From the NCBI RefSeq assembly GCF_964355755.1, contig NC_092677.1:24415175-24479174 (forward strand): 64,000 bases of DNA, written 5' to 3'. The position numbers were made by a program, and so were the translations under genes. Positions 19,848 through 64,000 of the stretch are shown piece by piece. The stretch comes from Antedon mediterranea. Its lineage: Eukaryota; Animalia; Echinodermata. Positions within the stretch are counted from its first letter, which is position 1. Every line of letters starts with the position of its first letter. The notes beneath the pieces were generated by a model. That model was not told the origin of the DNA and made no database searches. It saw only the letters and a program-made list of their open reading frames with translations.

Positions 19848-20029
19848 ATAATAACTATATCTTTCGTTCATACTTTATGTTGGGTCATTTTTTTTACTAA
19901 TTAATACTGTACTGTGTAAAACATAGATGTTTCGGTTTTTTACTATTGTTCTCAGGTTTTGTGAAATTGTCAAAACTTTATACAGATAAACCGCATATCA
20001 AGGTATTCAATCTTGTTTCAAAGTGTTTT

Positions 20030-25835: not shown

Positions 25836-26820
25836 ATATTCAGATTTGTTTCGTCTCTGTTGTGTTGTTGGAGAAATTGAAGTATGTGAGCCTACTGATG
25901 CTTTTGCGTCATGCGCTGACTTACTAAAGAGAGAAGTTCTTAGGATATTGATGTTAGTTATTGGACTGTCATCTTTGATTGGTAACTTTTTTGTCATCAT
26001 ATCGCGAAGGATAAACAAAGAAAATAGGTCTACAGTTGATTCTATTCTACTCACTAATCTTGCCGCGGCTGACTTGCTGATGGCAATTTATTTGCTGATC
26101 ATCGCAGGTGCGGATATACACTACAGAGGAAGGTACGCGAAGGTTGCCAGCGAATGGAAAAACAGCTTTCTCTGCTCTTTTTCCGGTGCTATTTCAACAC
26201 TGTCTGGGCAGTGTTCCGTGTCAACCTTGATGCTTATGAGTATTAACCGTGCTATAAACATCGTCTATCCATTCAGCACCAAACTGCTCAAACGTACGAA
26301 ATGCAAAATTATCATCGGTATTGCTTGGCTGGTATGGCTTTTTATTAGTTTCCTTCCACTGGTAGCTAACAAGTCACATGTCGGCATACCGTATTTTGGC
26401 GAGAACTACTACGGAAAACAAAGTGTGTGTCTCGCGTTGCCACTAACACGACATCGATTACCAGGCTGGGAGTACGCCACTGCCATATTCATCGCATTCA
26501 ATGGCTTGGGGTTTTTTGTTATCGCAGCAAGTTATCTGACGATTTTCCTCTCCGTTAAGAGATCTGCAATCACGGCTAACAGAATGCAGAGACGAGAAGA
26601 GGAAATCAAAATGGCCATGAAACTAGGGTTTATTGTTTTCACCGATTTCTGTTGCTGGTTTCCCATCATAGTAATGGGAATTTGTTCAGAGATGGAGTGG
26701 TGGAGAATTCCTGATGATATATACGTTTGGGCAGCAACATTTATAATTCCCATTAACTCATCAGTAAACCCATATCTTTACACAATTATCTATATGTGTA
26801 AAAGCGAGCGCAGGCCATAA
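25836..26820 (+). CDS. Hinge + 7TM terminal exon, copy 2 (rhodopsin-class, LGR type C/GRL101-like)
   Basis: 324-aa ORF with seven hydrophobic segments, VCLALP in ECL2, FTDFCCWFP, PINSSVNPYLY; catag acceptor. Confidence 0.95.
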
Positions 26821-31274: not shown

Positions 31275-32308
31275 TCTGTTAGTGTTAGTGTCTAAGATAC
31301 AACAGTATTGACAACACGTAACATTTTGTTAGTGTTTGGTTCTTTTAGTGTTCAAATTTCCACCATACAACAGTGTTGAAAACACGTAGCATTTTGTTCT
31401 GCTAGTGTCCATATTCCAGCAAACAACAGTGTTGAAAACGCGTATCATTTTGTTAGTGTTTGGATCTTTTAGTGTCCATGTTTCCACCATACAACAGTGT
31501 TGAACACACGATCATTTTGTTAGTATTTGGTTCTGTTGGTGTCCATGTTTCCACCATACAACAGTGTTGAACACACGATCATTTTGTTAGTATTTGGTTC
31601 TGTTGGTGTCCATGTTTCCACCATACAACAGTGTTGACTAACATTTTGTTAGCGTTTGGTTCTATTAGTGTTAAAGTTTCCATCATACAACAGTGTTGAA
31701 AACACGTAGCATTTTGTTAGTGTTTGGTTCTATTAGTGTTAAAGTTTCCACCATACAACAGTGTTGAAAACACGTAGCATTTTGTTAGCGTTTGGTTATA
31801 TTATTGTTCAAATTTCTACCTTACAACAGTGTTGAACACACGTAGCATTTTGTTAGTGTTTGGTTCTATTAGTGTTAAAGTTTCCACCATACAACAGTGT
31901 TGAAAACACGTAGCATTTTGTTAGCGTTTGGTTATATTATTGTTCAAATTTCCACCTTACAACAGTGTTGAACACACGTAGCATTGTGTTATAAGTGCTT
32001 GGTTCTGTTAGTGTCCATGTTTCCACCATACAACAGTGTTGACAAACATTTTGTTAGTGTTTGGTTCTTTTAGTGTTCAAGTTTCTACCATACAACAGTG
32101 TTGAAAACGCATAGCATTTTGTTAGCGTTTGGTTCTGTTAGTGTTCAAGTTTCCACCATACAACAGTGTTGAAAACGCATAGCATTTTGTTAGCGTTTGG
32201 TTCTGTTAGTGTTCATGTTTCCACCATACAACAGTGTTGAAAACACGTAGCATTTTGCATCGTGTTTTGGTCTGTTAATGTCCATGTTTCCACCCTACAA
32301 CAGTGTAA
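31275..32308. repeat. ~60-bp minisatellite (copy 3)
   Basis: Same unit, about 17 copies. Confidence 0.92.
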
Positions 32309-33157
32309 CAATCTGTATACTGTGGTCTAGAGCCTCAATAACGTATAACTGTGTGCGTGTATGGCGAAGCTTATACGTTACCGGACACAGTCGAATACAT
32401 TTGTTTTAAAGAAAATCTTATTTTAGAACTTATTAAATTATTATTAACAAGGCATATCCATGGCTGCAGTCGCGTGCTCAAGTTAGTGTTTACCAACCAA
32501 CCGACCGAAAAACGCGACTCAAAAGCTAAGCATTAAACTATTGGGAACTCATGATACAATACATTCCAATTAATTGTTTATGATGCTTTCTGTTTTCTTT
32601 ATTTTAAATTTTAAGGTTTTAACCATATTTTATGTTGAATATAAAATTAATTTTAAGAGGATAATTCATATTTAAAGTTTTGCAAATTTACCATCTTTGA
32701 ATTATTTAAAAAATAATGTTTGATTTATGCAACAGACCTACTGTAAAAATTAATTTTTGATTAGTGTTTTTTTATTGGTGAACATCGAACAAATATACAC
32801 ATTATTATTTAAAAACAATACTGTAATTTAAAACTAGTAGTATAGTACATAAATATATAGGCCAAATGCTTATTTGTGTCATATTTTAAATTAAATTCTT
32901 CATTCTTCCGTTGCAAAATGTAAATTAAATGGTGAGTTTATTTGCTGATAAGCACAAACGGATGTATAAAAGTATTATTGTCAGAAATCTTAATAAATGT
33001 GATAATTCATTTCAAAAAATCCACACCAATCTATATTTATTTATTTGAAAAAAATGTTGATTGTCTTTGAATTGTTTAATGAATTATTTAGTAGTATTAG
33101 TATGCATGGTATATAATTAATGAAACTATATATCTTTTACATTTCACAACTTTTAAG

Positions 33158-36100
33158 GGATTTGCAAAACAATCAAATTAGAACATTGACAGAGAATGCA
33201 TTCGCTGGTTTGAAATCATTGGAAGGACTGTAAGTGACGTTGTTTATGTTTACATACCTATGACGTTAATCCTAATGTTATTTACTGCACAATATACACA
33301 CATTTAAAAACATTATTTTAAAACTAGTACATAAATATAGGCCAATGCTTATTGTGTCATATTCTAAATTAAATTCGTCAATATTAAACTGTATGAAAGC
33401 AAACTTGAGCTTGAAACTGTAAAGGCTTTCCGTTGCAAAATGTAAATTAAATTGTGAGTTTAGCAATTATTTGCTGATATGCTCACAATGATAAATGTGT
33501 TATTGTCAGAAATCTTAATAAATGTGATAATTCATTGCAAAAAATCCACATCAATATATATTTAATTTATATTTCAATAATCTAAAAATGGTTCATTATT
33601 ATATTTAATGAGTATTTAGCAGTATAGTAGGCCTGTGGTGTAATGAATAAAACAACAATATACACAATATGTATACATAGATATATGATGTGTGCTTTTT
33701 TAATGAAATCAAATCGTTCAATCAAATAACAGGAAATATTCAGGTGTTATATAGTATGCTATAATTAATAAAACTATCTTTTACATTTTATAATTTTGAA
33801 GGTGGTTGGACAACAATCAAATTAGTACATTGACAGCCAATGCATTTGCTGGTTTGGAATCATTAGGAGGACTGTAAGTGACGTTGTTTATGTTTACATA
33901 CCTATGACGTAAATCTTAATGTTATTTACTCCACAATATACACATATTTAAAAACAATATTTTAAAACTAGTACATAAATATATGCCAATGCTTATTGTG
34001 TCATATTCTAAATTAAATTCCTCATATTAAACTGTATGAAAGCAAACTTGAGCATGAAACTGTAAAGGCTTTCCGTTACAAAATGTAAATTAAATGGTGA
34101 GTTTAGCAATTATTTGTTGCTGATATGGTCACAATGATGTATAAAAGTGTTATTGTCAGAAATCTTAATAAATGTGATAATTCATTGCAAAAAAATCCAC
34201 ATCAGTCTATATTTAATCATTTTAATAATTAAAAAAATGTTGATTGTCTTTTAATTGTTTAATGAATTATTTAGCAGTATAATATGGTATAATTAATAAA
34301 ACTTTCATATTTCACAACTTTTAAGGGGGTTGCAGTACAATCAAATTAGAACATTGACAGAGAATACATTCGCAGGTTTGGAATCATTGGAATGGCTGTA
34401 AGTGACGTTGTTTATGTTTACATACCTATGACGTTAATCATAATGTTATTTACTCCACAATATACACATATTTAAAAAACAATATTTTTAAACTAGTACA
34501 TAAATATATAGGCCAATGCTTATTGTGTCATATTCAAAATGAAATTCCTCAATATTAAACTGTATGAAAGCAAACTTGAGCCTGAAACTGTAAAGGCTTT
34601 CCGTTGCAAAATGTAAATTAAATGGCGAGTTTAGCAATTATTTTCTGTTAATCACACAATGATGTATAAATGTGTTATTGTCAGAAATCTTAATAAATGT
34701 GATAATTCATTGCAAAGTATCCACATCAGTCTATATTTAATTTATATTTCAATAATCTAAAAATGGTTCATTGTTATATTTAATAAGTATTTAGCAGCAT
34801 AGTAGGCCTGTGGTGTAATGAATAAAACAACAATATACACAATATGTATACATAGATATATGATGTGTGCTTTTTTAATGAAATCAAATCGTTCAATCAA
34901 ATAACAGGAAATATTCAGGTGTTATATAGTATGCTATAATTAATAAAACTATCTTTTACATTTTATAATTTTGAAGGTGGTTGGACAACAATCAAATTAG
35001 TACATTGACAGCCAATGCATTTGCTGGTTTGGAATCATTAGGAGGACTGTAAGTGACGTTGTTTATGTTTACATACCTATGACGTAAATCTTAATGTTAT
35101 TTACTCCACAATATACACATATTTAAAAACAATATTTTAAAACTAGTACATAAATATATGCCAATGCTTATTGTGTCATATTCTAAATTAAATTCCTCAT
35201 ATTAAACTGTATGAAAGCAAACTTGAGCATGAAACTGTAAAGGCTTTCCGTTACAAAATGTAAATTAAATGGTGAGTTTAGCAATTATTTGTTGCTGATA
35301 TGGTCACAATGATGTATAAAAGTGTTATTGTCAGAAATCTTAATAAATGTGATAATTCATTGCAAAAAAATCCACATCAGTCTATATTTAATCATTTTAA
35401 TAATTAAAAAAATGTTGATTGTCTTTTAATTGTTTAATGAATTATTTAGCAGTATAATATGGTATAATTAATAAAACTTTCATATTTCACAACTTTTAAG
35501 GGGGTTGCAGTACAATCAAATTAGAACATTGACAGAGAATACATTCGCAGGTTTGGAATCATTGGAATGGCTGTAAGTGACGTTGTTTATGTTTACATAC
35601 CTATGACGTTAATCATAATGTTATTTACTCCACAATATACACATATTTAAAAAACAATATTTTTAAACTAGTACATAAATATATAGGCCAATGCTTATTG
35701 TGTCATATTCAAAATGAAATTCCTCAATATTAAACTGTATGAAAGCAAACTTGAGCCTGAAACTGTAAAGGCTTTCCGTTGCAAAATGTAAATTAAATGG
35801 CGAGTTTAGCAATTATTTTCTGTTAATCACACAATGATGTATAAATGTGTTATTGTCAGAAATCTTAATAAATGTGATAATTCATTGCAAAGTATCCACA
35901 TCAGTCTATATTTAATTTATATTTCAATAATCTAAAAATGGTTCATTGTTATATTTAATAAGTATTTAGCAGCATAGTAAGCCTGTGGTGTAATGAATAA
36001 AACAACAATACATACAATATGTGATGTAAGATATATGATGTGTGCTTTTTTAATGAAATCAAATCGTTCAATCAAATAACAGGAAATATTCAGGTGTTAT

Positions 36101-37867
36101 ATAGTATGGTATAATTAATAAAACTATCTTTTACATTTCATAATTATGAAGGTGGTTGTACAGCAATCAAATTAGTACATTGACAGCCAATGCATTCGCT
36201 GGTTTGGAATCATTGAAATACCTGTAAGTGACGTTGTTTATGTTTACCTATGACGTTAATTATAATGTTATTTACTGCACAATATATACATATTTAAAAA
36301 CAATAGTTTAAAACTAGTACATACAAATAGGCCAATGCTTATTGTGTCATATTCAAAATGAAATTCTCCTATATTAAACTGTATGAAAGCAAACTTGAGC
36401 ATGAAAGTGAAAAGGCTTTCCGTTACAAAATGTAAATTAAATTGTGAGTTTAGCAATTATTTGCTGATATGCTCACAATGATTGTATAAATGTGTTATTG
36501 TCAGAAATATTAATAAAGGTGATAATTGATTGCAAAGCATCCACATCAGCCTATATTTATTTATTTGAATAATTAAAAAAAATGTTGATTGTCTTTTAAT
36601 TGTTTAATGAAATATTTAGCAGTATAATATGGTATAATTAATAAAACTTTCATATTTCACAACTTTGAAGGAGGTTGCAAAACAATCAAATTAGAACATT
36701 GACAGAGAATGCATTCGCTGGTTTGAAATCATTGGAACGTCTGTAAGTGACGTTGTTTATGTTTACATACCTATGAAGTTAATCCTAATGTTATTTAGTG
36801 CACAATATACACATATTTAAAAACAATATTTTAAAACTAGTACATAAATATATAGGCCAATGCTTATTGTGTCATATTCTAAATGAAATTCCTCAATATT
36901 AAACTGTATGAAAGCAAACTTGAGCCTGAAACTGTAAAGGCTTTCCGTTGCAAAATGTAAATTAAATGGTGAGTTTAGCAATTATTTGCTGATATGCTCA
37001 CAATGATGTATAAAAGTGTTATTGTCAGAAATCACAATAAAGGTGATAATTCATTGCAAAGCATCCACATCAGCCTATATTTATTCATGAATTATTTAGC
37101 AGTATAATATGGTATAATTAATAAAACTGTCATATTTCACAACTTTAAAGGTCGTTAAGCAGAAATCAAATTAGTACATTGACAGAGAATGCATTCGCTG
37201 GTTTGAAATCATTAAGAGAACTGTAAGTGACGTTGTTTATGTTTACATATGACGTTAATCCTAATGTTATTTACTGCACAATATACACATATTTACAAAA
37301 CAATATTTTAAACTAGTACATAAATATAGACCAATGCTTATTGTGTCATATTCTAAATTAAATTCCTTAATATTAAACTGTATGAAAGCAAACTTGAGCC
37401 TGAAACTGTAAATGCTTTCCGTTGCAAAATGTAAATTAAATGGCGAGTTTAGCAATTATTTTCTGTTAATCACACAATGATGTATAAAAGTGTTATTGTC
37501 AGAAATCTTAATAAAGGTGATAATTCATTGCAAAGCATCCACATCAGCCTATATTTAATTTATATTTTAATAATCTAAAAATGGTTCATTGTTATATTTA
37601 ATAAGTATTTAGCAGCATAGTAGGCCTGTGGTGTAATGAATAAAACAACAATACACACAATATGTATACATAGATATATGGTGTGTGCTTTTTTAATGAA
37701 GTCAAATCATTCAATCAAATAACATGAAATATTCAGGTGTTATATAGTATGGTATAATTAATAAAAACTATCTTTTACATTTCATAATTTTGAAGGTGGT
37801 TGCAAAACAATCAAATTAGTACATTGACAGAGAATGCATTTGCTGGTTTGGAATCATTGAAAGACCT
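33158..37867 (+). repeat. LRR exon-cassette array, copy 3 (9 exons)
   Basis: DLQNN..EGL, WLDNN..GGL, GLQYN..EWL, WLDNN..GGL, GLQYN..EWL, WLYSN..KYL, RLQNN..ERL, SLSRN..REL, WLQNN..KDL. Confidence 0.95.
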
Positions 37868-39249
37868 GTAAGTGTTATTCTTCATCATATCCACATACGT
37901 ACCTCCATACTGTATATCATGTTATATACACATTACACACATTGTACATATACATCGTAACCTTATTTTGTTACTTTTGTCAACATGGATTATTTTCATA
38001 ATAATTCATTATTGAGTAAATCAAAATTATAGTATTTATTAGTTTGTTACCATTATTAGGAATATTTAGCCTGTGAATCAAATTTAAGTTAGTAAGCTAT
38101 AAGATTTAAAAAGAAATTTTTAATTTTATTCGTATTTATTCATTCATTTTGACACACCAGCCCTGGTTTTTATTCTTACAAAGTTATTACAATTTAATCT
38201 CACTCTTATTTGTTGTGACGAAATACCTCTCCTCATAGAATTGACCAATATACATTAACTATTAGCTTAATTAAACAGGTATTTACAGGACAACAAAATA
38301 ACTACTATTGATCAAGGCGCCTTCTCTGTTTTTGCCTTATCACTTGGAAAACTGTAAGTAATTTATTCTGAAATTCATGCAGTTTCTCGAAATAATTAAT
38401 CACTTCAATTAGGTACTTTTCTTATGCTATAAACATGTTATCCAAGAAAAAACGGTATCAACAGGATAGGTTTACATACATTTTTTAAACATGGGTAAAT
38501 TTTTACATTCATTATCGTATCTGGCTCATTCCATGGAGTTGAACATGAGAAAGCATTTTAAAAGTTAATCTAACAAGTAGAACAAACAACTTTTTATATA
38601 ATTAAACATATAAGTAGAAGGATTATCTTAAGTGCCGACGGTGATAAAAATATTATTTTGAGACTACATTGCATCAGTTAGACACTAAATTGATTGTGGT
38701 ATACCTTCATTAATACGATATCACTAAAACGACATCGGTGCTATCCAAATGAGACATACTCGTAGATATTTAGTTACATGTGAGCTACACTCATTGACAC
38801 TGATTTCATATTTGTTTCCATATTTATTTTTTTTTTTACAGAGACATCAGACGCAACAATTTACAAGTTTACAGAGAAAGTACTTTTGAAGAATTGAAAT
38901 AATAACAGAATTGTAAGTATTATGTCGGATTTAGAAATTCTTTATATTCATTAAATGATATTTTTATTTTGTTTTAACACAGTTACCAATTCCACATGCA
39001 TGCCGACAGTGGCCCAACAAAATTGTTTATGTAGGCCTACAGCTTTTAGGTTATTTTAAATTTCTCCTTCACTTCTATCTTTTAAATTGGTCGTACACGT
39101 CATACTTTTACTATACGAGTAGATTTGATTGGCTGTAAAGCAGTCGTTATTCCACCTGTTATAGAACTAAAACCATTATAAACATTGTTATAGTAGGCTA
39201 CTACTGTATTTAACAACTTCCATTAAATTCAATTGTTTTTTTAACATAG

Positions 39250-40234
39250 ATATTCAGATTTGTTTCGTCTCTGTTGTGTTGTTGGAGAAATTGAAGTATG
39301 TGAGCCTACTGATGCTTTTGCGTCCTGCGCTGACTTACTAAAGAGAGAAGTTCTTAGGATATTGATGATAGTTATTGGACTGTCATCTTTTATCGGTAAC
39401 TTGATTGTCATCATATCGCGAAGGATAAACAAAGAAAATAGGTCTACAGTTGATTCTATTCTACTCACTAATCTTGCCGCGGCTGACTTGCTGATGGCAA
39501 TTTATTTGCTGATCATCGCAGGTGCAGATATACACTACAGAGGAAGGTACGCGAAGGTTGCCAGCGAATGGAAAAACAGCTTTCTCTGCTCTTTTTCCGG
39601 TGCTATTTCAACACTGTCTGGGCAGTGTTCCGTGTCAACCTTGATGGTTATGAGTATTAACCGTGCTATAAACATCGTCTATCCATTCAGCACCAAACGG
39701 CTCAAACGTACGAAATGCAAAATTATCATCGGTATTGCTTGGCTGGTATGGCTTTTTGTTAGTTTCCTTCCACTGGTAGCTAACAAGTCACATGTCGGCA
39801 TACCATATTTTGGCGAGAACTACTACGGAAAACAAAGTGTGTGTCTCGCGTTGCCACTAACACGACATCGATTACCAGGCTGGGAGTACGCCACGGCCAT
39901 ATTCATCGCATTCAATGGCTTGGGTTTTTTTGTTATCACAGCAAGTTATTTGACGATTTTCCTCTCCGTTAAGAGATCTGCAATCACGGCTAACAGAATG
40001 CAGAGACGAGAAGAGGAAATCAAAATGGCCGTGAAACTAGGGTTTATTGTTTTCACCGATTTCTGTTGCTGGTTTCCCATCATAGTAATGGGAATTTGTT
40101 CAGAGATGGAGTGGTGGAGAATTCCTGATGATATATACGTTTGGGCAGCAACATTTATAATTCCCATTAACTCATCAGTAAACCCATATCTTTACACAAT
40201 TATTTATATGTGTAAAAGCGAGCGTAGGCCATAA
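39250..40234 (+). CDS. Hinge + 7TM terminal exon, copy 3
   Basis: Intact 324-aa ORF 39260-40234, near-identical to the other copies. Confidence 0.93.
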
Positions 40235-44137: not shown

Positions 44138-47100
44138 ATGTTCATCTTTAAAGACGCAAGAATACTAGTACTAGGCCTAGTACTAGAACTATTGCCATTC
44201 TGTTTCACAAATAATGCCAGACCTGGTATGTATTAAATGCATTTAACATTTAGAATTAAAGATGTATTGTCCCCCTGAAAAAATAATTCTTACAATTTTT
44301 TTTGTTAAATATGCCATTTTAATTTCACCTAATACTGTTGTTACGCTATCCACTTTTAGCAAAAATTAGATCGGGAAAAAAATGTATTTACCTAAAAGCA
44401 AAAGATAATAGTCAAATTGGCTGCCAAATTTTTTTTTTTTTATTGAATTTAACCATTTATTTTGTCATTTTATAAGTGAAAACATTTTTTTTATATAATT
44501 ATGTTCTGTGACCGTCTTCTAACAGTAGGTTAATGTTCATCTATTTCTGCATTCTTAAAATAACTATTATCTTTTGTTCATGTTTTATGTTGGTTGATGT
44601 TATGAGTTTACTGTACGGTATAAAACATATTTCGGTTTTTGCCGATTGTTCTCAGGTTTTATGAAATTGTCAAAACTTTGGAAAGTGTTTTTCTGTTAGT
44701 GTTAGTGTCCAAGATACAACAGTATTGACAACACGTAACATTTTGTTAGTGTTTGGTTCTTTTAGTGTTCAAATTTCCACCATACAACAGTGTTGAAAAC
44801 ACGTAGCATTTTGTTCTGCTAGTGTCCATATTCCAGCAAACAACAGTGTTGAATACGCGTATCATTTTGTTAGTGTTTGGATCTTTTAGTGTCCATGTTT
44901 CCACCATACAACAGTGTTGAACACACGATCATTTTGTTAGTATTTGGTTCTGTTGGTGTCCATGTTTCCACCATACAACAGTGTTGAACACACGATCATT
45001 TTGTTAGTATTTGGTTCTGTTGGTGTCCATGTTTCCACCATACAACAGTGTTGACTAACATTTTGTTAGCGTTTGGTTCTATTAGTGTTAAAGTTTCCAT
45101 CATACAACAGTGTTGAAAACACGTAGCATTTTGTTAGTGTTTGGTTCTATTAGTGTTAAAGTTTCCACCATACAACAGTGTTGAAAACACGTAGCATTTT
45201 GTTAGTGTTTGGTTCTATTAGTGTTAAAGTTTCCACCATACAACAGTGTTGAAAACACGTAGCATTTTGTTAGCGTTTGGTTATATTATTGTTCAAATTT
45301 CCACCTTACAGCAGTGTTGAACACACGTAGCATTGTGTTATAAGTGCTTGGTTCTGTTAGTGTCCATGTTTCCACCATACAACAGTGTTGACAAACATTT
45401 TGTTAGTGTTTGGTTCTTTTAGTGTTCAAGTTTCCACCATACAACAGTGTTGAAAACGCATAGCATTTTGTTAGTGTTGGGTTCTGTTTGTGTCCATGTT
45501 CCAATTCATACATAGCAGTGTTGAAAACAACATGTAGCATTTTGTTAGCGTTTGGTTCTGTTAGTGTCCATGTTTCCACCATACAACAGTGTTGAAAACA
45601 CGTAGCATTTTGCATCGTGTTTTGTTCTGTTAATGTCCATGTTTCCACCCTACAACAGTGTAACATTTTGTAAATCTGTATACTGTGGTCTAGAGCCTCA
45701 ATAACGTATAACTGTGTGCGTGTATGGCGAAGCTTATACGTTACCGGACACAGTCGAATACATTTGTTTTAAAGAAAATCTTATTTTAGAACTTATTAAA
45801 TTATTATTAACAAGGCATATTCATGGCTGCAGTCGCGTGCTCAAGTTAGTGTTTACCAGCCAACCCACCGAAAAACGCGACTCAAAAGCTAAGCATTAAA
45901 ACTAATGGGATACTAAAACTCATGATACAATACATTCCAATTAATAGTTTATGATGCATTCTGTTTTCTTTATTTTAAATTTTAAGGTTGTAACCGTATG
46001 TTATGTTGAATATAAAATTAATTTTAAGAGGATAATTAATATTTAAAGTTTTGCAAATTTACCATCTTTGAATTATTTTAAAAATAATGTTTGATTTATA
46101 CAACAGACCTACTGTACAAATTAATTTTTTATTAGTGTTTTTTTATTGGTGAACATCGACGAATAGGTCTGTATGCCTATACTTCACATACAAAATGTTC
46201 AGTCTATCCACAGGGTTGTTATAACAGTGACATACTACTTAGTGAAGTAACTTGTTTGCCATGGAACATGAATACAGTTACAGAACTCATTAAGTATAAT
46301 AAACAAAGCACCATATTATCATTGTAAGTATTGAAGTGTACATGCGGTTGCTTTTAAGTAAATACAGAATTTACTTTTTTTGGTGATAAACCGCTAACTT
46401 TGTTTATTTCTCAATGTAGAGGGTATTGCTAAACCGAAAACCTTAAAAAACATAGCAAACCCCATCGAACCAACATAAAAAAGTAGAATTTATTTCGTCA
46501 CTTTGACGAATTGATCATTGTGATAAAAAAATACATTAAAATTTGAGCGCAAAGCGTTGTAGTGCTGCTGAGTTGTGCCTATTGTGTAGTCTAGTCATAG
46601 AATATATAAAGTATATAATATACACGGGTCCCATATATGTTCTAATGGCATGATGACGTTATCCAAATCAAAGAAAAAAAATTACAGAATTGTAAATCGT
46701 CCAAAATAGACCATGATTTATTACTGAGATTTTTTCAAAAACACGGGTGAAATGGACTGATACTGCTAAGGGAGAGAAATGCCTAATAAAGTCTACTTTA
46801 GTTAAAAAATAAGAAAAAAAAAAGCATTGTATTTTGTAATTCTCACACTCTAGGCCCTTAACGTTAATTTTCTCTTCGTTTAGCAATTATTTACCGAGAA
46901 GCACAAAATGATGTATACAAGTGTTATTTTCAGAAATCTTAATAAATGTGATAATTTATTGTAAAGCGTTTACAACCAGCCTATATTTAAATTATATTTC
47001 ATTAATCTAAAAACGGTTCATTGTTATATTAAATAAGTATTTAGCAGCATAGTAGGCCTGTGGTGTAATGAATAAAACAACAACACACACAATAAGTGAT

Positions 47101-50100
47101 GTAAGATATATGATGTGTGCTTTTTTAATGAAATCAAATCGTTCAATCAAATAACAGAAAATATTCAGGTGTTATTATAGTATGGTATAATTAATAAAAC
47201 TATCTTTTACATTTCATAATTTTGAAGGTGGTTGCAAAGCAATCAAATTACTACATTGACAGCCAATGCATTTGCTGGTTTGGAATCATTGAAAGAACTG
47301 TAAGTGTTATTCTTCATCATATCCACATACGTATTTCCATATCATGTTTTATACACATTACACATATTTAAAACTAGTACATAAATATAGGACAATGCTT
47401 ATTGTGTCATATTCTAAATTAAATTCCTCAATAATAAACTGTCTGAAAGAAAACTTGAGCCTGAAACTGTAAAGGCTTTACGTTGCAAAATGTAAAATTA
47501 AATGGTGAGTTTAACAATTATTTGCTGATATGCTCACAATGATGTATAAAAAGTGTTATTGTCAGAAATCTTAATAAATGTGATAATTCATTGCAAAGCA
47601 TCCACATCAGTCTATATTTATTCATTTTAATAATTAAAAAAATGTTGATTGTCTTTTAATTGTTTAATGAATTATTTAGCAGTATAATATGTAGTATGGT
47701 ATCATGAATACAACTTTTTTTTATATTTCACAACTTTGAAGGTACTTGGAGTACAATCAAATTAGTACATTGACAGAGAATGCATTCGCTGGTTTGGAAT
47801 CATTGAAAGGACTGTAAGTGACGTTGTTTATGTTTACATACCTATGAAGTTAATATTAATGTTATTTACTGCACAATATACATATTTAAAAACAATATTT
47901 TAAAACTAGTACATAAATATAGGCCAATGCTTATTGTGTCATATTCTAAATTGAATTGCTCAACATTAAACTGTATGAAAGCAAACTTGAGCCTGAAACT
48001 GTAAAGGCTTTCCGTTGCAAAATGTAAATTAAATGGCGAGTTTAGCAATTATTTGCTGTTAATCACACAATGATGTATAAATGTGTTATTGTCAGAAATC
48101 CTAATAAATGTGATTAATTCATTTCAAAAAATCCACATCAATCTATATTTATTTATTTGAAAAAAATGTTGATTGTCTTTGAATTGTTTAATGAATTATT
48201 TAGTAGTATTAGTATGCATGGTATATAATTAATGAAACTATATATCTTTTACATTTAACAACTTTTAAGGTGGTTGTACAACAATCAAATTAGAACATTG
48301 ACAGAGAATGCATTCGCTGGTTTGAAATCATTGGAAAGTCTGTAAGTGACGTTTATTATGTTTAAATATCTATGACGTTAATCCTAAAGTTATTTACTGC
48401 ACAATATACACACATTTAAAAACATTATTTTAAAACTAGTACATAAATATAGGCCAATGCTTATTGTGTCATATTCTAAATTAAATTCCTCAATAATAAA
48501 CTGTATGAAAGCAAACTTGAGCATGAAACTGAAAAGACTTTCCGTTGCAAAATGTAAAATTAAATGGTAAGTTTAGCAATTATTTACTGATATGCTCACA
48601 ATGATTGTATAAATGTGTTATTGTCAGAAATATTAATAAAGGTGATAATTGATTGCAAAGCATTAACATCATCCTATATTTATTTATTTGAATAATTTAA
48701 AAAAATGTTGATTGTCTTTTAATTGTTTAATGAATTATTTAGCAGTATAATATGGTTTAATTAATCAAACTTTCATATTTCACAACTTTGAAGGGGGTTG
48801 CAGTACAATCAAATTAGTACATTGACAGAGAATACATTCGCTGGTTTGGAATCATTGGAAGAACTGTAAGTGTTATTGATTATGTTTACATACCTATGAA
48901 GTTAATCATAATGTTATTTACTGCACAATATACACACATTTAAAAACATTATTTTAAAACTAGTACATAAATATAGGCCAATGCTTATTGTGTCATATTC
49001 TAAATTAAATTCCTCAATAATAAACTGTATGAAAGCAAACTTGAGCATGAAACTGAAAAGACTTTCCGTTGCAAAATGTAAAATTAAATGGTAAGTTTAG
49101 CAATTATTTACTGATATGCTCACAATGATTGTATAAATGTGTTATTGTCAGAAATATTAATAAAGGTGATAATTGATTGCAAAGCATTAACATCATCCTA
49201 TATTTATTTATTTGAATAATTTAAAAAAATGTTGATTGTCTTTTAATTGTTTAATGAATTATTTAGCAGTATAATATGGTTTAATTAATCAAACTTTCAT
49301 ATTTCACAACTTTGAAGGATGTTGCATTACAATCAAATTAGTACATTGACAGAGAATACATTCGCTGGTTTGGAATCATTGGAAGAACTGTAAGTGTTAT
49401 TGATTATGTTTACATACCTATGAAGTTAATCATAATGTTATTTACTGCACAATATACACACATTTAAAAACATTATTTTAAAACTAGTACATAAATATAG
49501 GCCAATGCTTATTGTGTCATATTCAAAATGAAATTCCTCAATAATAAACTGTATGAAAGCAAACTTGAGCATGAAACTGAAAAGGCTTTCCGTTGCAAAA
49601 TGTAAATTAAATGGCGATTTTAGCAATTATTTTCTGTTAATCACACAATGATGTATAAATGTGTTATTGTCAGAAATATTAATAAAGGTGATAATTGATT
49701 GCAAAGCATCCACATCAGCCTATATTTATTTATTTGAATAATTAAAAAAAATGTTGATTGTCTTTTAATTGTTTAATGAATTATTTAGCAGTATAATATG
49801 GTATAATTAATAAAACTTTCATATTTCACAACTTTGAAGGAGGTTGGAGTACAATCAAATTACAACATTGACAGCCAATGTATTCGCTGGTTTGGAATCA
49901 TTGGAAAGGCTGTAAGTGACGTTGATTATGTTTACATACCTATGACATTAATCATAATGTTATTTACTGCACAATAAACACATATTTAAAAACAATATTT
50001 TAAAACTAGTACATAAATATAGACCAATGCTTATTGTGTCATATTCAAAATGAAATTCCGTAATATTAAACTGTATGAAAGCAAACTTGAGCATGAAAGT

Positions 50101-53100
50101 GAAAAGGCTTTCCGTTACAAAATGTAAATTAAATTGTGAGTTTAGCAATTATTTGCTGATATGCTCACAATGATTGTATAAATGTGTTATTGTCAGAAAT
50201 ATTAATAAAGGTGATAATTGATTGCAAAGCATCCACATCAGCCTATATTTATTTATTTGAATAATTAAAAAAAATGTTGATTGTCTTTTAATTGTTTAAT
50301 GAATTATTTAGCAGTATAATATGGTATAATTAATAAAACTTTCATATTTCACAACTTTTAAGGTGGTTGCAGTACAATCAAATTAAAACATTGACAGAGA
50401 ATGCATTCGCTGGTTTGAAATCATTGGAATGGCTGTAAGTGACGTTGTTTATGTTTACATACCTATGAAATTAATCCTAATGTTATTTAGTGCACAATAT
50501 ACACATATTTAAAAACAATATTTTTAAACTAGTACATAAATATATAGGCCAATGCTTATTGTGTCATATTCAAAATGAAATTCCTCATATTAAACTGTAT
50601 GAAAGCAAACTTGAGCTTGAAACTGTAAAGGCTTTCCGTTGCAAAATGTAAATTAAATTGTGAGTTTAGCAATTATTTGCTGATATGCTCACAATGATGT
50701 ATAAATGTGTTATTGTCAGAAATCTTAATAAAGGTGATAATTCATTGCAAAAAATCCACATCAGTCTATATTTAATTTATATTTCAATAATCTAAAAATG
50801 GTTCATTGTTATATTTAATAAGTATTTAGCAGCATAGTAGGCCTGTGGTGTAATGAATAAAACAACAATACACACAATATGTATACATAGATATATGGTG
50901 TGTGCTTTTTTAATGAAGTCATATCGTTCAATCAAATATTCAGGTGTTATATAGTATGGTATAATTAATAAAACTATCTTTTACATTTCATAATTTTGAA
51001 GGTGGTTGAAAAGGAATCAAATTAGTACATTGACAGAGTATGCATTTGCTGGATTGGAATCATTGAAACAACTGTAAGTGTTATTCTACATCATATCCAC
51101 ATACGTACCTCCATACTGTATATCATGTTATATACACATTACACACATTGTACATACACCGTAACCTTATTTGGTTACTTTTGTCGACATGAATTATTTT
51201 CATAATAATTCATTATTGAGTAAATCAAAATTATAGTATTTATTAGTTTGTTACCAATATTAGGAATATTTAGCATTGTTATAGCCTGTGAATCAAATTT
51301 AAGTAAGTAAGCTATAAGATTTAATAAGAAATTTTAACTTTATTCGTATTTATTCATTCATTTTGACACACCAGCCCTGGTATTTATTCTTACAAAGGTT
51401 TTACAATTTAATCTCACTCTTATTTGCTGTGACGAAATACCTCTCCTCATATACACACAATGTTTAAAAACAATATTTTAAAACTAGTACATAAAAGGCC
51501 AATTAAATTGTGTCATATTCAAAATAAAATTCCTCAACTGTAAAGCAAATTTGAGCCTGAAACTGTAAAGGCTTTAGGAAAATAAGTAAATAGCCTTTAC
51601 ATACCCTATTTTAAATTCTAAAAAGTCTGAAAAAATCTTCAAGTGCAGTCGTGATCGATTAGTGTATTTGACCAATGTAAACATATGAAGTGAATTTGTG
51701 CCTGAAACTGACAAGACTTTCCGTTACAAAATGTAAATTATATAGAGTGTTTACCAATTATTTGATAATATTCACACAATGTATTATTGTTATTGTCAGA
51801 AATATTCTTAATTCATGGCCTATATTTAATTAATCCAATAATCTAAAAATCAGTCATTGTATTCAATTGGATATTTGGCTAAAACTATCTTTTACATTTG
51901 AAAACTTTAAAGGTTGTTAAGCAATAATCAAATTAGTACATTGACAGAGAATGCATTCGCTGGTTTGAAATCATTGGAAAAGCTGTAAGTGACGTTGTTT
52001 ATGTTTACATACCTATGACGTTAATCGTAATGTTATTTACTGCACAATAAACACATATTTAAAAACAATATTTTAAAACTTATACATAAATATATGCCAA
52101 TGCTTATTGTGTCATATTCAAAATTAAATTCCTTAATATTAAACTGTATGAAAGCAAACTTGAGCGTGAAACTGTAAAGGCTTTCCGTTACAAAATGTAA
52201 ATTAAATGGTGAGTTTAGCAATTATTTGCTGATATGCTCACAATGATGTATAAAAGTGTTATTGTCAGAAATCACAATAAAGGTGATAATTCATTGCAAA
52301 AAATCCACATCAGCCTATTTATTTATTTGAATAATTAAAAAAAATGTTGATTGTCTTTTAATTGTTTAATGAATTATTTAGCAGTATAATAATATGGTTT
52401 AATTATTAATAAAACTATATCTTTTACATTTAACAACTTTTAAGGTGGTTGTACAACAATCAAATTAGTACATTGACAGCCAATGCCTTCGCTGGTTTGG
52501 AATCGTTGAAAGAACTGTAAGTGACGTTGTTTATGTTTACATACCTATGAAGTTAATCATAATGTTATTTACTGCACAATATATACATATTTAAAAACAA
52601 TATTTTAAAACTAGTACATTATAGGCCAATGTTTATTGTGTCATTATTCAAAATGAAATTCCTCAATATTAAACTGTATGAAAAAAACTTGAGCCTGAAA
52701 CTGAAAAGGCTTTCCGTTGCAAAATGTAAATTAAATGGTGAGTTTAGCAATTATTTGCTGATAATCACACAATGATGTATAAATGTGTTATTGTCAGAAA
52801 TATTAATAAAGGTGATAATGCATTGCAAAGTATCCACATCAGCCTATATTTATTCATTTTAATAATTTAAAAAATTTTGATTGTCTTTTAATTGTTTAAT
52901 GTTATTTAGCAGCTTAATATGGTATAATAATAAAACTATATCATTTATATTTCACAACTTTTAAGATATTTGCAAAACAATCAAATTAGTACATTGACAG
53001 CCAATACATTCGCTGGTTTGAAATCATTGGATAGTCTGTAAGTGACGTTGTTTATGTTTACATACCTATGAAGTTAATCCTAATGTTATTTACTCCACAA

Positions 53101-56100
53101 TATACACATATTTAAAAACAATATTTTAAAACTAATACATAAATATAGGCCAATGGTTATTGTGTCATATTCAAAATGAAATTTCTCAATATTAAATTGT
53201 ATGAAAGCAAACTTGAGCCTGAAACTGAAAAGGCTTTTCGTTGCAAAATGTAAATTTATATGGTGAGTTTAGCAATTATTTACTGATATGCTCACAATGA
53301 TGTATAAAAGTGTTATTGTCCGAAATCTTAATAAAGGTGATAATTCATTGCAAAAAATCCACATCAGTCTATATTTAATTTATATTTCAATAATCTAAAA
53401 ATGGTTCATTGTTATATTTAATAAGTATTTAGCAGCATAGTAGGCCTGTGGTGTAATGAATAAAACAACAATACACACAATATGTATACATAGATATATG
53501 GTGTGTGCTTTTTTAATGAAGTCAAATCATTCAATCAAATAACATGAAATATTCAGGTGTTATATAGTATGGTATAATTAATAAAAACTATCTTTTACAT
53601 TTCATAATTTTGAAGGTGGTTGGAAAACAATCAAATTAGTACATTGACAGAGAATGCATTTGCTGGTTTGGAATCATTGAAAGACCTGTAAGTGTTATTC
53701 TACATCATATCCACATACGTACCTCCATACTGTATATCATGTTATATACACATTACACACATTGTACATACATCGTAACCTTATTTTGTTACTTTTGTCA
53801 ACATGGATTATTTTCATAATAATTCATTTTTGAGTAAATCAAAATTATAGTATTTATTAGTTTGTTACCAATATTAGGAATATTTAGCCTGTGAATCAAA
53901 TTTAAGTCAGTAAGCTATAAGATTTAAAAAGAAATTTTTAATTTTATTCGTATTTATTTATTCATTTTGACACACCAGCCCTGGTTTTTATTCTTACAAA
54001 GTTATTACAATTTAATCTCACTCTTATTTGTTGTGACGAAATACCTCTCCTCATAGAATTGACCAATATACATTAACTATTAGCTTAATTAAACAGGTAT
54101 TTACAGGACAACAATATAACTACTATTGATCAAGGCGCCTTCTCTGTTTTTGCCTTATCACTTGGAAAACTGTAAGTAATTTATTCTGAAATTCATGCAG
54201 TTTCTCGAAATAATTAATCACTTCAATTAGGTACTTTTCTTATGCTATAAACATGTTATCCAAGAAAAAACGGTATCAACAGGATAGGTTTACATACATT
54301 TTTTAAACATGGGTAAATGTTTACATTCATTATTGTATCTGGCTCATTCCATGGAGTTGAAAATGAGAAAGCATTTTAAAAGTTAATATAACAAGTAGAA
54401 CAAACAACTTAAGTGGATTTACACTAATAATTACTTTGTATCTGTAACGTTAAAATATATACCAATGATAGATACATATAAAGTAGAAGGATTATCTTCG
54501 TGAGGTGGTTTCCCGAATGATCGTAAAATCAAAAACGGTACTGTGTATGACCAACTAGCGTTATTGTCACCGGCTAGTCATCCATTCATAGAAGTACTGA
54601 TGTAGTAGCCTACCTGTACGGAGACCATAGAATGTGACCCGAGGCATGACTAACTACGACTTTAGATGATAGGAAGTTGAGAAAAAATGTTACGAGTAGT
54701 TGTACGACATGAAGATGTTTATGAAATTATGTCAATAATGTTTACACACTAGGCATACAAATAGTAATGTTTGTTAGTAAAAATAATTTTGAGTTAATAA
54801 GAATAAGATATAAGAAAGAAAAGCAAAGAGACTATGGAGCGGCTATTCCTGAATATACAATACTAAAGTATCGTAGATTTAAATAATAAATTTTAGGCGA
54901 TCTTGTCAAAGGTCAAGCGCCATATAGCCTGCCACGTTTCGATATTCAATATTGAACTTGACCTTACTTTGTATCTGTAACGTTAAGGATAGATACATAT
55001 AAAGTAGAAGGATTATCTTAAGTGCCGACGGTGATAAAAATATTATTTTGAGACTACATTGCATCAGTTAGACACTATATTGATTGTGGTATACCTTCAT
55101 TAATACGATATCACTAAAACGACATCGGTGCTATCCAAATGAGACATACTCGTAGATATTTAGTTACATGTGAGCTACACTCATTGACACTGATTTGATA
55201 TTTGTTTCCATATTTATTTTTTTTACAGAGACATCAGACGCAACAATTTACAAGTTTACAGAGAAAGTACTTTTGAACAATTGAAATATATAACAGAATT
55301 GTAAGTATTATGTCGGATTTAGAAATTCTTTATATTCATTAAATTATATTTTTATTTTGTTTTAACACAGTTACCAATTCCACATGCATGCCGACAGTGG
55401 CCCAACAAAATTGTTTATGTAGGCCTACAGCTTTTAGGTTATTTTAAATTTCTCCTTCACTTCTATCTTTTAAATTGGTCGTACACGTCATACTTTTACT
55501 ATACGAGTAGATTTGATTGGCTGTAAAGCAGTTGTTATTCCACCTGTTATAGAACTAAAACCATTATAAACATTGTTATAGTAGGCTACTACTGTATTTA
55601 ACAACTTCCATTAAATTCAATTGTTTTTTTAACATAGATATTCAGATTTGTTTCGTCTCTGTTGTGTTGTTGGAGAAATTGAAGTATGTGAGCCTACTGA
55701 TGCTTTTGCGTCCTGCGCTGACTTACTAAAGAGAGAAGTTCTTAGGATATTGATGATAGTTATTGGACTGTCATCTTTTATCGGTAACTTGATTGTCATC
55801 ATATCGCGAAGGATAAACAAAGAAAATAGGTCTACAGTTGATTCTATTCTACTCACTAATCTTGCCGCGGCTGACTTGCTGATGGCAATTTATTTGCTGA
55901 TCATCGCAGGTGCAGATATACACTACAGAGGAAGGTACGCGAAGGTTGCCAGCGAATGGAAAAACAGCTTTCTCTGCTCTTTTTCCGGTGCTATTTCAAC
56001 ACTGTCTGGGCAGTGTTCCGTGTCAACCTTGATGGTTATGAGTATTAACCGTGCTATAAACATCGTCTATCCATTCAGCACCAAACGGCTCAAACGTACG

Positions 56101-56622
56101 AAATGCAAAATTATCATCGGTATTGGTTGGCTGGTATGGCTTTTTATTAGTTTCCTTCCACTGGTAGCTAACAAGTCACATGTCGGCATACCATATTTTG
56201 GCGAGAACTACTACGGAAAACAAAGTGTGTGTCTCGCGTTGCCACTAACACGACATCGATTACCAGGCTGGGAGTACGCCACGGCCATATTCATCGCATT
56301 CAATGGCTTGGGTTTGTTTGTTATCACAGCAAGTTATTTGACGATTTTCCTCTCCGTTAAGAGATCTGCAATCACGGCTAACAGAATGCAGAGACGAGAA
56401 GAGGAAATCAAAATGGCCGTGAAACTAGGGTTTATTGTTTTCACCGATTTCTGTTGCTGGTTTCCCATCATAGTAATGGGAATTTGTTCAGAGATGGAGT
56501 GGTGGAAAATTCCTGATGATATATACGTTTGGGCAGCAACATTTATAATTCCCATTAACTCATCAGTAAACCCATATCTTTACACAATTATCTATATGTG
56601 TAAAAGCGAGCGCAGGCCATAA
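44138..56622 (+). CDS. LRR-GPCR copy 4, intact, 17 exons, 746 aa (12 variable + 2 fixed LRR exons, 7TM), GRL101/RXFP-like
   Basis: Exons 44138-44225, 46167-46323; 72-bp exons starting 47228, 47742, 48270, 48794, 49318, 49840, 50363, 51002, 51913, 52445, 52966, 53616; then 54097-54171, 55229-55300, 55638-56622. Total 2241 nt = 747 codons; no internal stop seen. Confidence 0.9.
44693..45662. repeat. ~60-bp minisatellite (copy 4)
   Basis: Same unit, about 16 copies. Confidence 0.92.
47228..53687 (+). repeat. LRR exon-cassette array, copy 4 (12 exons)
   Basis: WLQSN..KEL, YLEYN..KGL, WLYNN..ESL, GLQYN..EEL, MLHYN..EEL, RLEYN..ERL, WLQYN..EWL, WLKRN..KQL, LLSNN..EKL, WLYNN..KEL, YLQNN..DSL, WLENN..KDL. 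Confidence 0.95.
54432..55019 (-). repeat. Intronic satellite-related block, copy 4
   Basis: Near-identical to 24631-25218. Confidence 0.8.
55638..56622 (+). CDS. Hinge + 7TM terminal exon, copy 4
   Basis: Intact 324-aa ORF 55648-56622. Confidence 0.95.
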
Positions 56623-60525: not shown

Positions 60526-63500
60526 ATGTTCATCTTTAAAGACGCAAGAATACTAGTACTAGGCCTAGTACTAGAACTATTGCCATTCTGTTTCACAAAT
60601 AATGCCAGACCTGGTATGTATTAAATGCATTTAACATTTAGAATTAAAGATGTATTGTCCCCCTGAAAAAATAATTCTTACAATTTTTTTTGTTAAATAT
60701 GCCATTTTAATGTCACCTAATACTGTTGTTACGCTATCCACTTTTAGCAAAAATTAGATTGGGAAAAAAATGTATTTACCTAAAAGCAAAAGATAATAGT
60801 CAAATTGGCTGCCATTTTTTTTTTTTTTTATTGAATTTAACCATTTATTTTGTCATTTTATAAGTGAAAACATTTTTTTTATATAATTATGTTCTGTGAC
60901 CGTCTTCTCACAGTAGGTTAATGTTCATCTATTTCTGCATTCTTAAAATAACTATTATCTTTGTTCATGTTTTATGTTGGTTGATGTTATGAGTTTACTG
61001 TACGGTATAAAACATATTTCGGTTTTTGCCGATTGTTCTCAGGTTTTATGAAATTGTCAAAACTTTGAAAAGTGTTTTTCTGTTAGTGTTAGTGTCCAAG
61101 ATACAACAGTATTGACAACACGTAACATTTTGTTAGTGTTTGGTTCTTTTAGTGTTCAAATTTCCACCATACAACAGTGTTGAAAACACGTAGCATTTTG
61201 TTCTGCTAGTGTCCATATTCCAGCAAACAACAGTGTTGAATACGCGTATCATTTTGTTAGTGTTTGGATCTTTTAGTGTCCATGTTTCCACCATACAACA
61301 GTGTTGAACACACGATCATTTTGTTAGTATTTGGTTCTGTTGGTGTCCATGTTTCCACCATACAACAGTGTTGAACACACGATCATTTTGTTAGTATTTG
61401 GTTCTGTTGGTGTCCATGTTTCCACCATACAACAGTGTTGACTAACATTTTGTTAGCGTTTGGTTCTATTAGTGTTAAAGTTTCCATCATACAACAGTGT
61501 TGAAAACACGTAGCATTTTGTTAGTGTTTGGTTCTATTAGTGTTAAAGTTTCCACCATACAACAGTGTTGAAAACACGTAGCATTTTGTTAGCGTTTGGT
61601 TATATTATTGTTCAAATTTCCACCTTACAACAGTGTTGAACACACGTAGCATTGTGTTATAAGTGCTTGGTTCTGTTAGTGTCCATGTTTCCACCATACA
61701 ACAGTGTTGACAAACATTTTGTTAGTGTTTGGTTCTGTTAGTGTTCAAGTTTCCACCATACAACAGTGTTGAAAACGCATAGCATTTTGTTAGTGTTTGG
61801 TTCTGTTTGTGTCCATGTTCCAATTCATACATAGCAGTGTTGAAAACAACATGTAGCATTTTGTTAGCGTTTGGTTCTGTTAGTGTCCATGTTTCCACCA
61901 TACAACAGTGTTGAAAACACGTAGCATTTTGCATCGTGTTTTGTTCTGTTAATGTCCATGTTTCCACCCTACAACAGTGTAACATTTTGTAAATCTGTAT
62001 ACTGTGGTCTAGAGCCTCAATAACGTATCACTGTGTGCGTGTATGGCGAAGCTTATACGTTACCGGACACAAGTCGAATACATTTGTTTTAAAGAAAATC
62101 TTATTTTAGAACTTATTAAATTATTATTAACAAGGCATATTCATGGCTGCAGTCGCGTGCTCAAGTTAGTGTTTACCAACCAACCGACCGAAAAACGCGA
62201 CTCAAAAGCTAAGCATTAAAACTAATGGGATACTAAAACTCATGATACAATACATTCTAATTAATAGTTTATGATACTTTCTGTTTTCTTTATTTTAAAT
62301 TTTAAGGTTGTAACCGTATGTTATGTTGAATGTAAAATTAATTTTAAGAGGATAATTAATATTTAAAGTCTTGCAAATTTACCATCTTTGAATTATTTTA
62401 AAAATAATGTTTGATTTATACAACAGACCTACTGTACAAATTAATTTTTTATTAGTGTTTTTTTATTGGTGAACATCGACGAATAGGTCTGTATGCCTAT
62501 ACTTCACATACAAAATGTTCAGTCTATCCACAGGGTTGTTATAACAGTGGCATACTACTTAGTGAAGTAACTTGTTTGCCATGGAACATGAATACAGTTA
62601 CAGAACTCATTGAGTATAATAAACAAAGCACTATATCAAAATTGTAAGTATTACAGTGTATGTACTTATTGTGTAGCCATAGAATATATACAGTATATAA
62701 TATACATAGTGAGATTACGGGTTCCATATGTTCTAATGGCATGATGACGTTATCCAAATCAAACATGAAGATGACAATTTCGGAAAATAATGATTCGAGC
62801 TAAAAGATATATGATTTTGAAGAAAATTGGACACGTAGAAGCGCGAAGCGCGCTGTTTTAGATTTGTATAACTGACAAAAGCTTTCAAAATAAGTTATAA
62901 ACACCAAGGTCACCTCTAATTACTGAAGGGCTAAAAATATACGGTGTAAGTGAAATTACGCGATCAATGTTGTTCAAATTTTTAGGCGTGATGACGTCAT
63001 TAAAATGAGATTGGTGGAACTACACGATTCAGTAACTTTTATGTTGGTTCAATGGGGTTTGCTATGTTTTTTTAGAGTTTGCGGGGTTTGGTAATTATTT
63101 TAAACCAAAAGGTGATGTTTTACCCCAAAAATAAGTAGTTAACAACAATTTTGTGTTTGTTTAATTGACACAAAGTTTGTAGTACACTACACGATTCAGT
63201 AACTTTTATGTTGGTTTGATGGAGTTTTCTATGTTTCTAAGGTTTGCGGGGTTTACGGTGATTACCAATACCCAATGTATACATTTGTCAAATAAATCAG
63301 AAATGGTCTACAGACCTGTCAAGAGTATCAAGAAAAACAATCAGAATTGTACATCGTCCAAGATAGACCATTATTTATTATTTAGGTTTTTCCAAAAACC
63401 CGGGTGAAAAGGACTGATTCTGCTGAAGGAGAGAACTGCCTAATAAAGACTACATTAGTTTTAAAAAAAGAAGAAAAAAAAAACATTGCATTTTGTAATT

Positions 63501-63791
63501 CTCACACTCTTGGCCCTTAACGTTTATTTCTGTTTGTTTTTATATTTATTTATTTAAATTTTCTTTTGCATTTCACAACTTTAATAAATTAATTATTGAT
63601 GGTGATTTTGATTGAATAATTAAAAAAAATGTTGATTGTCTTTTTAATTGTTTAATGAATTATTTAGCAGCATAATATATGGTATAATTAATAAAACAAT
63701 ATCTTTTACAACTTATAAGGGGTTTGAATAACAATGAAATTAGTACATTGACAGCCAATGCATTCTCTGGTTTGGAATCATTGGAATGGCT
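60526..63791 (+). CDS. LRR-GPCR copy 5, 5' part (continues beyond window)
   Basis: Exons 60526-60613, 62487-62643, 63720-63791 (GLNNNEISTLTANAFSGLESLEWL), in frame; introns resemble copy 1. Confidence 0.85.
61080..61981. repeat. ~60-bp minisatellite (copy 5)
   Basis: Same unit, about 15 copies. Confidence 0.92.
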
Positions 63792-64000
63792 GTAAGTGAC
63801 GTTGATTATGTTTACATACCTATGACGTTAATCATAATGTTGTTTACTGCACAATATACACACATTTAACAAAATTATTTTAAAACTAGTACATAAATAT
63901 ATGCCAGTGCTTATTGTGTCATATTCTAAATTAAATTCCTCATATTAAACTGTATGAAAGCAAACTTGAGCCTGAAACTGTAAAGGCTTTCCGTTGCAAA

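Follow-up and report, generated by a model that had tools for sequence, protein, structure and literature searches.

Two neighbouring exon cassettes in a window of 64,000 nucleotides from the crinoid Antedon mediterranea (contig NC_092677.1; the window is the whole stretch analysed) raise the question of how two copies of a sequence can be identical, intron included, except in codons assigned to a ligand-binding face. When the window is compared with itself at a lag of 524 bases, only three mismatches (48795, 48796 and 48803) are found across the 612 bases from 48389 to 49000, the nearest mismatches that bound this tract at the same lag being 48388 and 49001. Each copy of the tract contains one 72-bp exon with AG/GT borders (Table 1). 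From copy A to copy B, the mismatches change GGG to ATG (G to M) and CAG to CAT (Q to H); in the LxxLxLxxNxL motif, these codons occupy positions 5 and 7. An earlier note on this DNA had described a duplicate of some 600 bp with three substitutions only, all of them nonsynonymous and in binding-face codons; the comparison agrees on every point, and intronic mismatches comparable to the exonic ones were looked for in the aligned pair, which has none in 612 bases outside the three exon bases.

The other 597 bases of the pair show no difference, which bounds their neutral divergence at 0.5% or less (95% bound). If change were uniform, the probability that all three changes land in the 15 face bases among 612 would be 1.5e-5, and the probability that they all fall within 9 bases would be about 6e-4. 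The clustering that the same note had pointed to is weaker once the roughly 10-fold face excess of the whole array (see below) is assumed: the probability of three face changes rises to about 0.008 per pair, or roughly 8% over ten pairs. The observation on the pair is real and well beyond chance, and the contrast between its G-L-Q and M-L-H exons is the sharpest instance of an array-wide pattern and no one-off.

The predicted receptor genes of the window

The window holds 35 cassette exons of 72 bp with one LRR each, 31 of them distinct, in five tandem genes that carry 8, 5, 9, 12 and 1 cassettes respectively, gene 5 being cut by the window end. Outside the cassette arrays, the gene-sized units are 95-99% alike. 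Four of them terminate in a long exon that encodes a cysteine-bearing hinge and a rhodopsin-family 7TM domain. This 7TM exon matches PF00001 with an E value of 1.4e-30 (107 bits against a cut-off of 30.5), and the closest solved structure to the hinge-7TM part is human RXFP1 (PDB 7tmw, E 1e-47); the alignment begins at query residue 1, and the cysteines of an RXFP-like hinge are visible in the exon translation. Gene 4, the host of the pair, is modelled with 17 exons, all of them with AG/GT borders, and a predicted product of 734 aa that contains no stop, carries 3 cysteines among residues 1-75 and keeps the LRR ectodomain in frame with the 7TM part. Judging from its sequence, the host gene is likely to encode an LRR-GPCR, that is, an LGR of the rhodopsin family.

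Of the four complete genes, two seem to be damaged, a point that counts against the reading preferred below. Gene 1 has a one-base insertion between 15340 and 15400, and gene 3 has no cap exon around 32790 and a short terminal LRR exon at 38842-38912. These defects may represent birth-and-death turnover or consensus errors, and broken copies could still serve as donors of sequence.

Several other repeats accompany the genes. Each predicted first intron contains a 68-bp minisatellite, repeated about 14-16 times (5880-6815, 31267-32306, 44684-45661 and 61071-61980), with a remnant at 20022-20303, and an AAT microsatellite lies upstream of the signal exon. The first intron of gene 2 contains two open frames (19145-19793), which we take to resemble the tail fragment of a non-LTR retrotransposon reverse transcriptase. 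Positions 1-2416 of the window are occupied by a separate tandem repeat with a period of about 1 kb and an inner 160-bp duplication, at the left edge of the array.

Table 1. Features of the duplicate pair, its host gene and the neighbouring genes (window coordinates)
Feature	Position	Strand	Basis or remark
Copy A of the near-identical tract (612 bp, period 524)	48389..49000	+	three mismatches against copy B
Copy B of the 612-bp tract	48913..49524	+	lag-524 comparison
72-bp phase-2 LRR exon, G-L-Q version, likely ancestral	48794..48865	+	5' block and rare exon-base-41 allele common to 34326 and 35501
72-bp phase-2 LRR exon, M-L-H version, likely derived, window-unique	49318..49389	+	sequence comparison
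Putative unequal-crossover interval, 88 bp	48913..49000	.	overlap of the two chimeric intron parts
Patch matching 47228-type cassette, at most 19 bp, spans splice donor	48859..48877	+	diagnostic intron +8..+10; repeated at 49383-49401
Predicted signal-peptide exon, gene 4, phase 1	44138..44225	+	sequence-only prediction; copies at 5305, 18908, 30740, 60526
N-terminal cap (LRRNT-like) exon, gene 4	46203..46323	+	weak tblastn match to Antedon P0005
Gene 4 array, 12 cassette exons	47228..53687	+	starts in next line
Gene 4 cassette starts	47228, 47742, 48270, 48794, 49318, 49840, 50363, 51002, 51913, 52445, 52966, 53616	+	
Two fixed terminal LRR exons, gene 4	54097-54171, 55229-55300	+	
Hinge and seven-transmembrane exon, gene 4	55638..56622	+	rhodopsin family, relaxin-receptor-like
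Gene 1, 8 cassettes	5305..15439	+	one-base frameshift in last helix: pseudogene or consensus error
Gene 2, 5 cassettes	18908..26820	+	modelled as intact 568-aa receptor
Gene 3, 9 cassettes, likely pseudogene	30740..40234	+	cap exon absent, 71-bp terminal LRR exon; carries G-L-Q-Y cassettes
Gene 5, cut at window end after first cassette (63720)	60526..64000	+	

Variation of the binding face across the array

Which positions of the LRR motif form the concave face is established knowledge. The assignment used here rests on the motif and on the accessible part of PMC3341825; a fold of the Antedon protein P0003 predicted without an alignment had a mean pLDDT of 40 and was left unused. Close pairs of cassettes were picked on the distal intron and compared on held-out intron sites. 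Among 10 non-overlapping close pairs, 17/150 face bases differ, against 10/900 held-out intron bases and 4/570 other exon bases. Leaving out the G-L-Q/M-L-H pair, the counts are 14/135 for the face and 10/810 for the held-out intron (Fisher p 4e-7, a value made optimistic by shared history). At the codons of the five concave-face positions, differences are about 10 times as frequent as at held-out intron sites, and these codons carry an excess of amino-acid changes: across 12 close pairs, 15 of the 16 face-codon changes are nonsynonymous, and 6 of the 16 alter two or three bases at once. A previous version of the close-pair test (23/180 against 27/2606) was discarded because its pairs had been selected on the same intron bases that were compared.

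The motif positions with the greatest amino-acid entropy are 3, 7, 5, 8 and 2 (3.2, 2.8, 2.5, 1.9 and 1.7 bits), and at 9 of the 18 remaining codon positions the residue never changes. Variation does not extend beyond exon bases 2-13 and 64-70, and 8 of the 15 face sites show all four bases. As an intron splits each beta-strand, 30 junctions yield 27 different strand sequences. Motif position 3, encoded by the last codon of the cassette, has 14 codons among the 31 distinct exons, often with at least 30 identical bases on either side. E, W, N, Q, Y, K, S, G and R make up most of the face residues, P and C are absent from them, and no stop is found in the 35 cassettes, against about 0.41 expected per exon under free combination of the face bases. 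Synonymous diversity is raised in face codons (13% of same-residue pairs) and next to them (24%) relative to the rest of the exon (6%), and the all-pairs pN/pS at the face is 0.88, a ratio that was not used as a test of selection because the face codons are saturated and have been hit repeatedly. Both values speak against a simple reading by selection; they fit long-lived variants or, equally, a locally raised mutation rate.

Origin of the duplicate and direction of change

The intron between the two exons of the pair is a two-part chimera: its first 135 bases are those of the downstream intron and its last 405 those of the upstream intron. This is the product that one unequal crossover within the overlap of both parts (Table 1) would be expected to leave. 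Elsewhere in the array, gene 3 contains a perfect 1181-bp tandem duplication of two cassettes (33624-34804, extending to 35979, lag 1175) with zero differences, which provides a control for the pair.

The cassettes are mosaics. At intron positions +8 to +10, 25 of the 35 cassettes have one triplet and 8 have a second one, which in them is part of a distinct intron type. The pair carries this second triplet inside flanks of the first type, in a tract of 3-19 bp that at its maximum takes in the last face codon, and the nearest cassette matching the patch is the one at 47228 in the same gene. From such patterns, short conversions are likely to occur in the array. All four gametes are seen at 43-62% of exon site pairs, whatever the distance, a figure to which recurrent mutation can contribute. 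Isolated multi-base clusters exist in introns too (33/61 patterns, many of them at one place), so block exchange would not be confined to exons.

The earlier note had found no donor for the ATG and CAT codons among the other exons of the window, and a wider search leads to the same result. The 9-mer that spans both codons has a single occurrence in the window when both strands are searched, and no M-L-H donor was found there, the closest 5' blocks of other exons (6/34) being three bases off. A local template was also sought in the window with five 8-mers across the changes, which gave one second match only, on the minus strand at 32727. Two other sources were rejected: a quasi-palindromic origin of ATG..CAT, as the stem has just 3 bases, and adenine-specific mutagenesis of the retroelement type, as non-A bases are equally variable.

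The G-L-Q-Y version of the exon is present also at 34326 and 35501 in gene 3, and these copies share with the G-L-Q-Y cassette of the pair a rare allele at exon base 41. Given this shared allele, M-L-H is likely the derived state and G-L-Q the ancestral one. The gene 3 copies also mean that an in-window donor is available for the reverse direction, and it is possible that copy A received G-L-Q as a patch, from a donor of the gene 3 type and with a tract of up to about 27 bases.

Evaluation of the possible explanations

Several scenarios may explain how copy B came to differ. One of them invokes three separate point mutations in copy B after the duplication, each favoured by strong diversifying selection and with no donor involved. 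The face excess and the nonsynonymous bias of the whole array are in agreement with it, as are the failure to find a donor in the window and the fact that nearly every face codon is one step from another at its position (1/49 isolated). Nevertheless, to place three hits in 15 bases the rate would have to be 40 or more times the neutral one, when the array as a whole shows an excess of about 10-fold, and this stepwise scenario seems rather unlikely. Clustered mutation is an established minor class. A single multi-nucleotide mutation, made by error-prone repair synthesis at the five-G run of the acceptor and then retained, could account for three changes within 9 bases that all start from G, two of them in the G run, and for the missing donor in the window. 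Yet this type of event is rare, whereas multi-base swaps of face codons are common here (6/16), and the intronic patch with its in-window match points to templated exchange; we regard such an origin as decidedly unlikely. The possibility that a targeted mutator, or a somatic templated process, diversifies the exon edges so that face codons vary by individual or by cell could draw on the restriction of the variation to exon bases 2-13 and 64-70 and on the raised synonymous variation there. Against it stand the lack of a single-base bias, since all bases vary, the zero stops in 35 cassettes, the genome-complete genes, the window containing neither an incomplete gene nor a donor array set apart from the genes, and the fact that selection and exchange account for the same pattern elsewhere (PMC1805685, as far as its accessible part goes). 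It is highly improbable. A related, quite improbable reading would see in these genes a VLR-like crinoid repertoire built on a GPCR chassis: templated micro-conversion over less than about 30 bases, possibly somatic and with broken copies as donors, would rewrite ligand-facing codons at the exon edges, and in-frame skipping of 72-bp exons would recombine half-strands across introns, multiplying the binding surfaces. If true, diversification of a somatic or targeted kind would be highly interesting.

The pair could also be an artefact of the assembly, with two alleles of one cassette placed in tandem, or with consensus errors. The region is repetitive and the one-base frameshifts of genes 1 and 3 may themselves be errors. 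Ten public runs cover part of the region, all as contigs, none recorded as RNA and with a best word share of 0.53; four were compared at 49100-49600. In three of these, 124-194 contigs cover that interval and many alternative letters occur at face bases. Among the differences listed, where letters are not linked to individual contigs, every aligned contig of three runs that covers 49281 has a different letter and, in one run (organism B), every aligned contig over 49320 has G; taken together, these letters speak neither for nor against M-L-H. These run contigs, which do not have the private intron base of the pair, lend the artefact some support; they also show a large and variable cassette family in two organisms, and either this haplotype may be absent from the samples or filtering may have removed contigs of this kind. 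In a run guessed to be RNA, 3 contigs fitted in part; they contain intron sequence and show no spliced joint, and the run is uninformative on expression. On the other side, the differences are substitutions and include no homopolymer indels, the reading frame is preserved, the sites concerned are variable in all cassettes, a genuine tandem duplication should leave a chimeric intron of this type, and the contrast would need explaining even if the two copies were alleles. For these reasons, an artefact is unlikely, and we give it very little weight.

It remains to weigh a duplicate that was altered by exchange. We consider it fairly probable that the pair is a recent unequal-crossover duplicate later modified by one short conversion patch, within a tandem family of crinoid LRR-GPCRs under diversifying selection. 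A recent unequal crossover would have placed duplicates of a one-repeat exon cassette side by side; copy B would then have gained its three changes as one gene-conversion patch of 9 to about 27 bases, whose source cassette would lie outside the window, and the M-L-H patch would have been retained by selection that favours new binding surfaces. More generally, exchange between copies would keep introns and scaffold codons alike, variants of the concave beta-sheet would be retained, and the outcome would be receptors with differing repeat numbers and combinations. One event for the three changes is favoured by the low probability of three independent hits (about 0.008 per pair at the 10-fold excess), short of being required or proven. 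That selection and conversion act jointly is favoured by the face excess over held-out introns, the multi-base codon swaps and the intronic micro-patch of the pair. Among the mechanisms that the earlier note had put forward, diversifying selection and short-tract conversion thus gain support from the array-wide data, and nothing positive speaks for targeted mutation.

Placement among related receptors and possible role

The closest of 36 database relatives are crinoid proteins named "GRL101-like", with 60% identity over the 7TM for P0001 of Anneissia and 55-58% for P0002-P0005 of Antedon. In the 7TM tree, the genes of the window form a sister group to P0003 and P0005 of Antedon (support 0.999) within a crinoid clade (support 1.0); this tree took in no reference Lymnaea GRL101 or RXFP sequence, and two of the grouped crinoid proteins are LDLa-rich. 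When all 36 relatives, some of them LDLa-rich, were used as tblastn queries, the top 45 hits outside the cassettes included no match to an LDLa module, which argues that the genes of the window are not GRL101 proper (type C2 LGR). The LRRs of P0003 and P0005 are also homogenised, one of these proteins having a near-exact three-repeat duplication, so this behaviour is likely common among crinoids. Homogenised LRR runs are also seen in P0014 and P0015 of scallops. P0005 has in addition an extra N-terminal region and a C-terminal stretch resembling a fused retroelement, the latter probably an annotation artefact.

The likely role of these receptors would be the recognition of variable foreign or non-self ligands, signalled through the GPCR. 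Immune or symbiont sensing appears somewhat probable, and a chemosensory or reproductive function is a more doubtful candidate. The hints come from other genes. In Biomphalaria sudanica, a snail GRL101-like cluster (SudRes2) lies in a region associated with schistosome resistance (accessible part of PMC12297450), which hints at an immune role; in a starfish, the sensory tentacles show enrichment of a GRL101-like gene (accessible part of PMC6267866), an expression that hints at chemosensation. If the immune role is true, a GPCR class would be added to the recognition repertoire of echinoderms, in line with the association of the snail cluster with parasite resistance. The pair itself would capture the process at about one step, and it offers a natural experiment, as its two repeats differ in just two predicted surface residues.

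Comparison with known systems

The general design of the array is already known from the ROCO genes of brown algae and the het genes of Podospora, which limits the surprise; our searches of the open-licence literature (supplements aside) turned up no description of a comparable array for a GPCR of crinoids or of other echinoderms, although the gene-family tables of echinoderm genome papers could include this family. The nearest 7TM relatives, the crinoid and invertebrate GRL101-like LGRs, also form tandem clusters with copy-number and structural variation. Unlike them, the genes of the window have neither LDLa nor C-type-lectin modules, and the accessible part of PMC12297450 describes for these LGRs no long array of homogenised LRRs whose face codons are hypervariable.

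The likeness to the brown-algal ROCO genes extends to one 24-residue LRR per 72-nt phase-2 exon, a variable number of repeats, tandem genes with pseudogenes, and four motif positions that diversify in both (PMC3341825 and PMC11378527, each for its accessible part). In the Ectocarpus 72-nt LRR exons, the positively selected sites given in the available text of PMC3341825 are 15, 17, 19 and 20, on the concave face, and these are the four most variable positions of the window (3, 5, 7 and 8). However, ROCO is an intracellular ROC-COR GTPase, whereas the repeats of the window are predicted to be extracellular and are fused to a relaxin-receptor-like GPCR; the C-terminal exon encodes this GPCR and no ROC-COR GTPase domain. 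Inverted LRR exons as in ROCO arrays were also looked for, with no minus-strand match in the window at up to 36 mismatches, and the introns of the window are homogenised along with the exons, in contrast to ROCO. The WD-repeat genes het-d and het-e of Podospora share the concerted evolution of repeats within and between genes, and positive selection acts there on four surface codons per repeat (PMC1805685, accessible part). These fungal genes are intracellular, of the NLR type, made of WD repeats and of known allorecognition function; those of the window have LRRs and a putative function in recognition. The array belongs to neither of these two families.

The variable lymphocyte receptors (VLRs) of jawless fish arise by somatic assembly, in which an incomplete gene receives donor cassettes. 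They resemble the array in their 24-residue LRR modules with a variable concave face (PMC3341825, accessible part), and differ from it in that the genes of the window are complete in the genome (two of them model as complete), with cassettes separated by introns within the genes and with a 7TM domain. Human RXFP1, the best solved relative of the hinge-7TM part, and the glycoprotein-hormone receptors are single-copy and conserved, with divergent fixed repeats, and RXFP1 has one LDLa module; phase-2 exons with one LRR are reported for gonadotropin receptors too (accessible part of PMC11378527). A survey likewise gives one GRL101 orthologue per ambulacrarian species (accessible part of PMC8286064). 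LGRs are thus usually regarded as few, conserved hormone receptors, and the cluster would be an LGR offshoot that evolves like a recognition-gene family, gaining and losing repeats by crossover and diversifying its binding face at positions that match those of the candidate immune receptors of brown algae.
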